From the NCBI RefSeq assembly GCF_030013595.1, contig NZ_CP122768.1: a stretch of DNA of 64,000 nt. One strand, 5' to 3'. This DNA is from Escherichia coli. GTDB lineage: Bacteria > Pseudomonadota > Gammaproteobacteria > Enterobacterales > Enterobacteriaceae. How positions within the stretch are numbered: the first letter of the stretch is position 1; every line of letters starts with the position of its first letter. Below, piece after piece: positions 9,001 through 12,000 of the stretch. A program made the position numbers.

Positions 9001-12000
9001 ATTGAAAAGAAAGAGTTGCGTACAGAGGATGATTTATTATCCCAAATCGCAATGCTGGAAAAAGAAAACGCAGAGTTAAGGGCAAGGATAGAGCAGTTAG
9101 AGCAAGAGCGCCCGATACACTTATATAAATACTGGGATAAAGACCCATTAGCTAAGGCTATTGAGATTAGAAACAGAGAGTGGGCCAATTACGATCCAGA
9201 AAATGATTTTGCCACCAGGGGAAATCAAGAAGCGATAACCAGGGAGCTTAAGCAGTGGGGGGCAAGTAATGCACTTGCAACGCTCATAGAGAGGACTGCC
9301 TGCCCTATTAACCGAGACAACAGCCAAAAGAACGCAAAGCCGGATTAACGCACCATACCGCATACCCTGAGGGTGATTTACTGTTACCCTGAGGGTATTT
9401 TTTTATCTTCCCCGTCAATTTTACCATCACCCTTAGGGTAGATTTCCTCCCGATTACCATCACCCTTAGGGTTAATTTCCTTCCGGTAACCATTAGGCCT
9501 GAGGGTATGAAAATATTCGTTATTTCTGTGCCAGGATTACCTCGTCAAATTGAGTAGACGTTATGAGGTAAATATATGTCAAATACGCTTATTCGTTTAA
9601 CAGAAGTTCAGCGTAGAACTGGATATAGCAAGGCATGGATTTATCGCCTTATGGGGCAAGGTAAATTTCCTGCATCAGTTAAAATTGGCTCGCGAGCTAT
9701 TGCTTTCGTTGAGAGTGAAATTGACGAGTGGATTAATCAGCGTATTGCGGAATCACGCGGAACAGCTACCTGATTAAATGGCTACGGGGCTATTGCCCCC
9801 AGCTATCCACCAGCAAATAAAAGTAACTTAATTCGATAGCAGGAGTTTTTATGAAATTTCCAAAAACGCCCGTACAGGGGCGGGGCTTCGTTCGGCCTGA
9901 AAACCAGAATCTGCAAAATTTCGGCGAAATTATCCCGGTTATTTCCGGCGTTATTGGCGGGAGTGAAACCACTATTGTTAGCGCCAGAGCGTTACATAAG
10001 GCGTTAGGTGTAGGGCGCGTTTTCCGTTCGTGGATCAAGGGGCGCATTGAAGAATACGGGTTCACGGAAGGCGTGGATTATGAGGTTGTTGAATATTTGA
10101 GCCGACCCGATCCGGTGAGCGCAAAATCTCGCCAGCAAACCGCTCTTGAGTACATCATCACAGTGAACATGGCGAAAGAACTGGCGATGGTCGAGCGCAC
10201 CGAACAGGGCCGCGCCGTTCGTCAGTACTTCATCAAATGCGAGGAGGAGCTACACAAGGTTGCGCCTGTTCGTTCCGCAGCGTTACGCCGGGAACTGAAA
10301 GCCCGTATCACCGTTGCCAGTTACTTTAAGCCGATGTGCGCCGCGCTGGAGGCGTACCGGGCTGAACTGGGTAAAAACACGTTCCAGCACCACTACACCA
10401 CGGAAGCCAATATGCTGGCGCGTATCGTGCTGGGTGGCATGACTGCAAAACAGTGGGCGCAGGCGAACGGCATCACAGGCGAACCACGCGACCACATGAG
10501 CACGTTGCAGCTTGAGCACCTTTCTTACCTTGAGCAGAGCAATATCACGCTGATTGAGTTAGGCCAGGACTACCACCAGCGGAAAGCTGAATTAATTCGT
10601 CTTTCGCAGCGTTGGTTAGCCCGTCGCATGGAGGAAAACAGCCATGTGTAACGCTCTGACCGTTACAAAAAGAGAAAGCGCCCCGTTGCCGGAGCGCCTT
10701 TGTGAACGAATAGCCTACTGCGCCATATTGCTTACTGTCTACGAGGCAGATTATAGCGTTGTGGTCGCACAGAGTGAAGGCGCTGATCACCGTTACTACA
10801 GCACGCCAGAAATGCAGAATATTTTGCTGCAAAATGCCGTTGGTCACGCCGTCCGGAAAGCAAAAAATTTTGCTGGTGGCGCGACTGATGCGATTTTGTC
10901 AGGTCGCCAGGTGCTGATCAATCTGATGTCTGATTTCGTTCTGGATAAAACAAAGGCGACCGCAGAGAGCCGCCAGTGGAAAAGCTACATACTTGAACGC
11001 ATCACCAACAATGCCACATTTGCGGCTGGTGGGCAATGTGATCAGTCAGATTTGGTTCGTTCCAAGGTTTGCAACGAGAGCTTTTTCCTGTGCTCTTTAA
11101 GGAATTTCTCAAGAGCAAACGAACAAGGTGCGAATCTTTCTGATTCATGTTCATGCGCTATATTTTTGCGTCGTTTCTTACGAGTTGGTGATGGTGTTTT
11201 GGTTGATTCTGTGTCGCTCATGGTGCTGTCCTGTAAAGCAATGCGCCTGCGTTCCTCAAACTATGGCGCTGATAGTGGCTATTCCTGCTCTTTGACCTTG
11301 CGTCGCTGGAGTTCTTCACGCGCGACGGTGACGAGTTGCCCGATCTCCTCGGCTGCTTTGACTCCGATTTTTTCCACCTGCGCCAGTGCATCGAGCGAAG
11401 AAACCAGGGGATTTTCTCCTCTTCCTTCTGCCTGGCGCCGGGCGATCTCCCCGCGCATGGCGGTTACTATGAATCCGGCGTTGCTTTCGCCGTCCAGTTT
11501 TACGGATTCCATGCCTTCAATAACATCATGCGGGATCCGAGCTGTCAGTGATTGTGATTTTGCGTTTTTTGAACCTGTAGCCATCTGTAATCCTCTCAAT
11601 GAAAGTGTAAGACAATATACACATAAAAAGTCTTACATAAAAGCATTGACATGTAAGCCACCCACAAATAAAGTTACTTACACCTTGTTAATGCAAGGTG
11701 CAGAAACGACGAAACCCGGCAGTGCGCGAACACTAACCGGGCTTCTAACCACCAACGATAGAGAGCTTATCGAGGTAGCTATGTTAAATCATACCACACA
11801 CCCGCAAGGGCGGGACTCGCACAACCTGAATAAATACATCTGGCGTTTTATCGCCCTGAGTACGGCACAACCGCGCGTAATTCACATCGAGGCCACCAGC
11901 GAACAGGAAGCGCGTCAGCAATCTCCTGATGGCTGCGTGATGGTATTCGCTGCCCGTATTCGCCAGGAGGTGCACCATGCATAACCTGTCAATTTCTGAC

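Follow-up and report, generated by a model that had tools for sequence, protein, structure and literature searches.

In phage P4 the gene kil is nested within a longer open reading frame (ORF), eta, with which it has its frame and stop codon in common. Within eta there is a constitutive promoter whose transcripts are soon terminated via the CI RNA and seqA (Forti et al. 1999, J Bacteriol 181:5225, as summarised in PMC10111431). Kil is a truncated form of Eta that acts in cell killing; the full-length protein is made only from transcripts of the late promoter, which lies upstream, by translation coupled to the alpA homologue, and this translation prevents termination of those transcripts and leads to read-through (PMC10111431). 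Here we describe an ORF of similar anatomy in a window of 64,000 nucleotides (nt) from the Escherichia coli contig NZ_CP122768.1 (assembly GCF_030013595.1), "the window" being the whole stretch of DNA that was analysed. The ORF is a plus-strand frame of 446 codons (10644-11984) within a Gram-negative phage-inducible chromosomal island (PICI), and it is probably the PICI counterpart of the nested eta/kil pair, its translation escorting the induced transcript past local immunity. A second described system to be compared is the immI operon of P1 and P7, ordered c4 RNA, icd, ant, in which a small Icd/Kil-type gene is translated first and an antisense-type RNA occludes the icd ribosome-binding site, so that the downstream genes are silent. 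We know of no long upstream in-frame ORF in immI. Gram-negative PICIs themselves have been described as a succession of integration, Bro, replication and late zones (PMC10111431), with AlpA as the helper-induced activator (PMC6092414; PMC11773190), and as unidirectionally transcribed elements whose global repressor is unclear (PMC6092414).

The plus frame contains no stop codon from 10620 to the TAA at 11982-11984 (454 codons), and its first ATG, at 10644, leaves the 446 codons already noted by the first-pass annotation of this DNA, which had pointed to a stop-free frame crossing a minus-strand gene and a promoter region. This ATG follows a GGAGG Shine-Dalgarno (SD) sequence (10630-10634) after a 9-nt spacer, the whole start signal occupying plus-strand positions 10630-10646, and it overlaps the stop codon of an antirepressor-family gene, antA (plus strand, 9851-10651; Pfam AntA, 82.9 bits), as ATGTGTAA. 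The overlap suggests translational coupling, as the first-pass annotation had supposed, and 22 AntA-linked loci have the same start context. At its other end the stop codon of the frame overlaps the ATG of the next plus-strand gene (11977-12342, 121 amino acids (aa), phrog_340) as ATGCATAA (11977-11984). Stops make up 2.7-6.5% of the codons in the other five frames over the same interval, so that the chance of finding the ~380 codons upstream of the small C-terminal gene open is ~1e-9, a figure that applies to this single sequence. The openness of the frame is far beyond chance, and it recurs in unrelated sequence variants.

The last part of the frame is a gene in its own right (plus strand, 11781-11984, 67 aa) with its own SD sequence, GAGG, at 11772-11775. 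The existence of this gene had been proposed from the sequence of the window, and it is borne out by both the family search and the distribution of variable sites: the product matches the NCBIfam model NF033153 (host cell division inhibitor Icd-like) over residues 19-62 with 71.6 bits against a cut-off of 25, and the variable sites of the region fall on plus-codon positions 1/2/3 in the numbers 23/15/38, as for plus-strand coding. P4 Kil (65 aa) matches the same model with 76.1 bits. The link to P4 came from this profile; a tblastn search of phage genomes with the 67-aa product did not find P4, and P4 Kil was too divergent for the alignment used in our locus scan.

The kil frame of P4 has no stop codon between that of vis, the homologue of AlpA, and its own, and it contains the CI RNA (Rfam C4, 74.9 bits; the Rfam clan C4/c4-a1b1 was seen in this search) and seqA (isrK, 60.8 bits). 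We used P4-like elements as a positive control. This set comprised 71 sequences, two of which were cut by a contig end, and 68 of the 69 informative distinct sequences keep 183-225 open codons from the vis stop. Because the P4-like set shows the same signature of openness and NF033153 is common to both, we take the window frame to be the analogue of eta and 11781-11984 to be the homologue of kil. The two systems agree in having a Kil-family domain (one NCBIfam model) at the C-terminus of a longer ORF that has the frame and stop of kil and starts at the stop of an upstream gene of the vis/alpA operon, a promoter (predicted in the window) and immunity determinants (candidates in the window) within that ORF, downstream genes for replication, a P4-type primase among them, and an open frame that is kept across relatives. 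They differ in that the window frame is two to three times longer (446 codons, as against 197 in P4), has antA rather than vis as its upstream partner, contains two complete opposite-strand genes (ylcI and orf59) with terminators, and has in place of CI (C4) and seqA (isrK) a candidate repressor with operators and a cis-encoded antisense RNA; outside Kil there is no detectable sequence similarity. The differences from immI of P1 and P7 are that the c4 RNA derives from the same strand, acting on sites in the same transcript, and that ant lies downstream of icd, whereas antA lies upstream in the window.

Six E. coli relatives have 291-536 open codons between the upstream gene and the Icd stop, and among them are mosaics with different ylcI modules and with BRO-N replacing AntA. 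The corresponding interval from these six and from 80 IMG/VR loci was clustered at >95% identity, giving 61 variants which, as mosaics of shared modules, are not fully independent. The frame that ends at the kil stop is 192-653 codons long in 56 of them and open all the way to the upstream gene in 55; locus L029 has 200 codons, with in-frame stops further up. The open frame begins at, or within tens of nt of, the stop codon of the upstream plus-strand gene, be it AntA, AlpA or BRO-N. Species-representative genomes of seven other genera (Cedecea, Klebsiella, Rahnella, Intestinirhabdus, Superficieibacter, Pantoea and Yersinia) also have a frame of 311-375 open codons, with 17-25 stops in each of the other two plus frames; the DNA upstream is mostly unalignable between genera, yet the frame is open. 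As a separate observation, three loci carry a tandem second kil-like segment or a duplicated small RNA (sRNA)/leader module (L003 2674-3039, L004 2722-3087, and L039 2670-2757 and 3415-3501), and these duplications remain in one open frame (of 520, 536 and 653 codons respectively).

Selection keeps the frame open, and several further observations indicate that its object is openness, not sequence. Changes in length within the frame have preserved it. The distance from the ATG of ylcI, a YlcI/YnfO-family gene that lies wholly antisense within the long frame (minus strand, 11279-11584, 101 aa), to the ATG of kil, a span that corresponds to the divergent promoter/leader region, takes eight values (145, 160, 193, 196, 199, 205, 334 and 937 nt), all of which are 1 mod 3, a count that leaves out broken-frame loci by construction. 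Eighteen alleles would create stop codons if placed on the window background, and each intact locus that has one avoids the stop, either because another base of that codon is changed too or because the frame is shifted locally. When single stop-creating substitutions were counted on the window background, in a test that ignores haplotype context, there was no signal (13 observed against 17.6 expected). All of 46 distinct ylcI genes lie in the same register against the plus frame, the third position of the plus codon being opposite the third position of the minus codon. YlcI is almost without tyrosine, and the two variants that do contain it place it after Glu or Lys codons, which end in a purine, so that no plus-strand stop is possible.

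The minus-strand gene is also real. It has an SD sequence, GAGAGGA, and is annotated in RefSeq; its product matches NCBIfam NF041551 with 70.9 bits, above the curated cut-off of 30, and phrog_6522 with an E value of 6e-58; and the variable sites of the ylcI region are distributed 28/46/86 over the plus-codon positions, the least variable being the second position of the minus gene. This is the signature of the minus-strand gene, and it agrees with the earlier view that the middle has no protein-level constraint of its own. The translation of the plus frame in this middle part is Ser/Pro/Cys-rich, as first noted. The sequence pattern of YlcI resembles that of the ribbon-helix-helix (RHH) family, and there is a weak match to Pfam PSK_trans_fac (E 0.022). 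The AlphaFold2 (AF2) monomer model (pLDDT 85) has helices at residues 19-28, 35-54 and 59-100 and no strand, and neither a Foldseek comparison of this model with the Protein Data Bank (PDB), which gave no significant match, nor a PDB sequence search, which gave none, confirmed the beta-strand, helix, helix fold.

Downstream of ylcI on the minus strand is orf59 (11042-11221), a small basic ORF of 59 aa that is probably a real gene: it matches phrog_21027 (E 1.5e-15), its homologue is a hypothetical gene in RefSeq, and its variable sites show a weak periodicity (31/34/43). A terminator-like hairpin with a T-run, specific to the minus strand, lies after orf59 (10955-10974) and is likely to be the end of the minus-strand ylcI operon. 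A second terminator hairpin with G.U pairs, also specific to the minus strand, lies within codons 11-19 of the long frame (10675-10700; 11 pairs followed by CTCTTTTTGT); it folds at -26.9 kcal/mol on the minus strand (z -2.5), as against z -0.07 on the plus strand, and is invariant across haplotypes. Upstream of this terminator there is a promoter-like site on the minus strand (TTCACT-17-TATAAT, 10778-10750), and the ~65-nt patch between the two (10712-10775) has two strongly divergent alleles, in one of which 3 nt are deleted. The minus-strand region 10660-10790 could be the source of another small antisense RNA, facing the beginning of the long frame.

The region between ylcI and kil contains a candidate internal promoter for kil, an analogue of PLE, with a predicted sigma-70 site TTGACA-17-TAAAGT (plus strand, 11646-11674; 10 of 12 consensus matches); TTGAC(A/G) is found at the same place in all YlcI variants. 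Around it is a candidate operator array of four TGTAAG half-sites (11606-11682), forming two inverted pairs with a 45-46-nt period, so that four of the 28 copies of TGTAAG in the 64 kb lie within 77 nt. The second inverted pair brackets the -35 and -10 elements of the predicted kil promoter, from which ylcI is divergent. In other YlcI variants the sequence of the half-sites changes and the same three positions relative to the kil promoter are kept, which suggests that there are several repressor/operator specificity types, as in phage immunity regions, and the co-variation of the operator arrays with YlcI supports DNA binding by YlcI. Half-sites read from the window and from the divergent regions of L002, L006, L011, L012, L029, L034, L048 and L058 include, for example, TGTAAG, GTGTTTCA, GGCTGACA, GCGCACA and GAATAC.

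Over the 5' leader and SD sequence of kil, on the minus strand, we predict a cis-antisense sRNA (11695-11781) of two hairpins, the second of which is a terminator with a T-run, starting at a predicted transcription start site at 11780/11781. Its predicted extended -10 element, TGgTATGAT, lies inside codons 2-5 of kil (minus strand, 11788-11796), at a position that agrees with the first base of the sRNA model; the TG and four of the six hexamer bases are invariant among 61 sequences and the remainder are at least 90% conserved. The minus strand of the region folds at -36.8 kcal/mol (z -5.5), as against z -2.3 for the plus strand, on which the fixed G.U pairs would be C.A mismatches, and a T-rich run follows hairpin 2 in the variants inspected. 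Nine of the 13 pairs of hairpin 2 show compensatory changes, a level of covariation reached by none of 500 shuffles and much lower in slid controls. A covariance model of the sRNA, R1, gives minus-strand matches of 37-81 bits next to kil in 12 loci of other genera and no match in the nine P4-type loci searched. An alignment extended by these other-genus loci has compensatory changes in 14 of 26 pairs, and 96.7% of its cells are paired; it was fitted to the model and therefore favours structure. The sRNA is conserved across no fewer than 10 genera; no Rfam family matches it above threshold, and it is unannotated in RefSeq. Two parts of it are hypervariable and may set specificity, namely the 7-nt loop of hairpin 1 and the hairpin-2 stem. 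R1 also has a weak match at 16417-16487 (plus strand, 21.1 bits, E 0.004), inside an ORF at 16151-16600, which may be due to chance.

The closest described RNA is SymR of the SymE/SymR pair of E. coli K-12. Both are cis-antisense RNAs (~77 nt for SymR) of two hairpins, with a promoter inside the 5' end of the target gene, a 5' end beside the start codon, and the SD sequence of a harmful small protein covered. The target proteins, SymE and Kil, are unrelated, and the Rfam model of SymR (RF01809) matches window positions 11780-11708 over its full length with 30.8 bits, far below its gathering score of 61. Conversely, the best match of R1 within 1 kb of the K-12 symE region is the annotated symR itself (L184 5836-5925), with 11.8 bits and likewise over the full length. 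A blastn search with the kil leader gave no symE- or symR-annotated match among 40 rows, taken as a spread sample of 1550 records. The relation may be one of distant kinship or of convergence, and we regard it as an unproven lead rather than as family membership. The ProQ/FinO family, a family of antisense-RNA chaperones, also has a member encoded in the island (15575-16117; Pfam ProQ, 84 bits), and this protein may act on the antisense sRNA.

Taken with the P4 precedent, this arrangement points to the following scheme, which we consider probable as a whole. Two proteins with one frame and one stop would be made: the 67-aa Kil/Icd-like protein and a long eta-like form. The short form would be translated from its own SD on a short transcript from the internal promoter (11646-11674), and the long form would start at the ATG at 10644, coupled to the antA stop, and only where the helper-induced alpA operon is read through. 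In the uninduced island YlcI, bound to operators bracketing the internal promoter, would hold down the kil/primase operon, and the cis-antisense sRNA would pair with the kil leader and SD; a leader left untranslated would, as in P4 and P1, also lay the transcript open to termination that is premature and probably Rho-dependent. Once the helper has switched on alpA, ribosomes from the upstream start would move through the ylcI antisense, the operators and promoter, the stretch targeted by the sRNA and then kil, and would couple into the next ORF through the ATGCATAA overlap, and so to DUF4222 and the primase. The induced transcript would never be naked, and it would not depend on the blocked SD of kil. 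In the absence of the long frame it would contain ~1.1 kb of untranslated RNA, and the plus strand from 11075 to 11900 is pyrimidine-rich with C>G, and is therefore a plausible Rho substrate if untranslated. Since ribosome passage is what would matter, selection would act on the absence of stop codons and not on the amino-acid sequence upstream of Kil. More tentatively, we suggest that the ORF is a "ribosome track", selected only for being translated, that lets induced read-through override a hitherto unrecognised PICI immunity switch (divergent YlcI/YnfO with variant-specific operators, plus a new SymR-like sRNA family), all of which would be encoded inside the ORF on its two strands.

Several findings weigh against the escort scheme. 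No Rho-dependent terminator was located. Neither C4 nor isrK had a match in the window in Rfam searches even at E<=10, with the P4 control positive, and because CI and seqA are absent the P4 mechanism is not transferable unchanged to the window. Six of the 61 E. coli-type variants have a broken frame, in-frame nonsense codons accounting for two and leader frameshifts for four. Four Pectobacterium loci and one Samsonia locus (L177, L178, L180, L182 and L183) lack the long frame and still carry alpA, ylcI, the antisense sRNA and kil, so the long-frame device is not obligatory. Finally, some BRO-linked variants have no obvious SD sequence or ATG near the 5' end of the open frame.

Of the other explanations, the one that survives best is that the long form matters for its product, i.e. 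that the Kil/Icd domain, a cell-division inhibitor or killer, is delivered as a C-terminal fusion when the SD of kil is blocked, with the N-terminus as a passive leader. This would fit the finding that the Kil domain is the only conserved protein part and the position of the antisense RNA over the kil SD, as well as the killing of cells by Kil, which is a truncated Eta (PMC10111431). The four frameshifted variants speak against it. They have no fusion, yet their upstream region remains covered by an ORF as far as kil: another stop-free plus frame of 278-332 codons runs from AlpA or BRO across the ylcI antisense and ends overlapping the kil frame or a few dozen nt away from it. Because these natural variants make no fusion and the region nevertheless stays ORF-covered, and given that translation of P4 eta is reported to prevent termination of the late-promoter transcript (PMC10111431), the escort role is favoured and we consider a role for the fusion unlikely as the explanation of the frame. 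The two roles are not mutually exclusive.

A genuine multi-domain protein of the "Ash"/Bro network, whose N-terminal and middle parts would evolve fast and have functions that depend on their sequence, seems to us doubtful. It has in its favour that PGAP calls some long forms "Icd-like" or "ash family protein", that P4 eta has been treated as a Bro-network gene (PMC10111431) and that BRO-N is fused in-frame in some loci. The 446-aa product, however, matches no Pfam family at E<=1, Phage_ASH included, and no PHROG outside the Kil part at the 0.01 limit. The variable sites of region 10652-10940 are spread evenly over the codon positions (28/25/29), i.e. there is no coding signal, and the pattern of the middle is that of the minus gene. 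Homologues are mosaics related at the DNA level only, the length varies from 200 to 653 codons, and the leader tolerates local frame shifts. A search of 5.8 billion proteins with the N-terminal part returned 38 relatives, all of them from E. coli or Shigella and all mosaic DNA-level relatives. One apparent distant homologue of the N-terminal part, P0033 (31% identity), was rejected as a mosaic variant with just two DNA patches in common. Judged by this variation, the frame outside the genuine genes kil and ylcI and the probable gene orf59 is free in its sequence but constrained to lack stop codons. The first-pass annotation had held that an orthologous, uninterrupted protein conserved through its middle would speak against a composite frame; the uninterrupted frame is indeed found in relatives, with varying length, and conservation of its middle is limited to what the antisense gene imposes.

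The first-pass annotation had itself favoured a composite, made up of an authentic N-terminal gene with its start coupled to antA, then a spurious middle, then a small C-terminal gene, and had named the loss of a stop codon by frameshift as one of two possible causes. We regard a composite joined by such a loss as very improbable. The strong SD and the ATG overlapping the antA stop, the reality of the C-terminal gene and the antisense character of the middle are all as this explanation requires, but no relative has a stop codon that ends an N-terminal gene, and that part shows neither periodicity nor membership of a family. Searching the two ends separately, as had been advised, gave NF033153 for the C-terminal 67 aa and no Pfam or PHROG match for the N-terminal 135 aa. 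What is conserved is the open frame, in 55 of 61 variants, the seven other genera and P4, and the loss of a stop by frameshift is therefore not supported. The alternative offered at the same time, genuine overprinting, comes closest among those first suggestions, in the form known from P4 eta/kil.

Least credible of all is a chance or hitch-hiking antisense ORF, in which a frame that shares third positions with minus-strand genes tends to be open and relatives inherit it, since, even though the ylcI part alone stays open in ~32% of random synonymous recodings and is thus not very improbable, more than 200 codons outside any minus-strand gene are open in all intact variants, stops make up about 6% of codons in the other frames, the eight spacers are equal mod 3, would-be stops are rescued, and sequences that cannot be aligned between genera are still open.

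The surroundings of the frame are those of an island of known type. The gene order is tyrosine integrase (7169-8422; Pfam Phage_integrase), AlpA (9576-9773; Pfam Phage_AlpA), AntA, the long frame, the 121-aa ORF, DUF4222, a P4-type primase (12636-14384; Pfam D5_N/DUF5906), which is 40% identical to P4 alpha, and then the ProQ/FinO-family gene and a DUF2213 gene (17465-18118; Pfam). An int-alpA RNA (8467-8534; Rfam, 45.5 bits, above the gathering score) follows the integrase but does not directly precede alpA (9576), from which a 267-aa ORF (8545-9348) separates it. By the order of its zones, i.e. integrase with AlpA, Bro zone, primase and late genes, the locus classifies as a Gram-negative PICI, and the same order of integrase, AlpA, Bro/AntA-type gene, primase and late genes is found in EcCICFT073 and EcCIMP1. 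Unlike published PICIs, the window has a divergent ylcI, operators and an antisense RNA inside the ORF of the Bro zone. We found no description of a ylcI/antisense-RNA module or of a conserved stop-free frame in PICIs in the literature searched, the coverage of which was limited, and this absence does not prove novelty.

A nested frame also explains the inconsistent starts of "Icd-like" genes (67 to 171 aa and more) overlapping ylcI in existing records. In RefSeq, a 99.5%-identical E. coli island is annotated with AntA, then an unannotated gap, an opposite-strand YlcI/YnfO and a 171-aa "Icd-like" coding sequence (CDS) overlapping ylcI (L001 5070-5585), and in other relatives the Icd-like CDSs are 67 to 134 aa long. 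The label "transcriptional repressor" given to the family by PHROGs (phrog_6196) and by the P4 RefSeq record (NC_001609 P4p10) is a relic of an obsolete P4 ORF, "cI protein (AA 1-137)"; in NC_001609 eta, kil and the CI RNA are unannotated.

The locus is best filed as a previously undescribed form of the nested-gene device of P4 eta/kil, with a different putative immunity module inside. The kil-leader module was found by blastn in 1550 of 5426 complete E. coli genomes. If the escort scheme is true, the principle of P4 eta/kil, in which translation is the immunity-insensitive escort of transcription, would extend to the much larger family of Gram-negative PICIs, and YlcI with its operators and the antisense sRNA would be candidates for the repressor/immunity system that the PICI literature has called unclear. 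The frame, which overlies ylcI and orf59 on the opposite strand together with a bidirectional control region and the predicted sRNA gene, is also a clear natural example of selection against stop codons that acts without selection on the encoded sequence.

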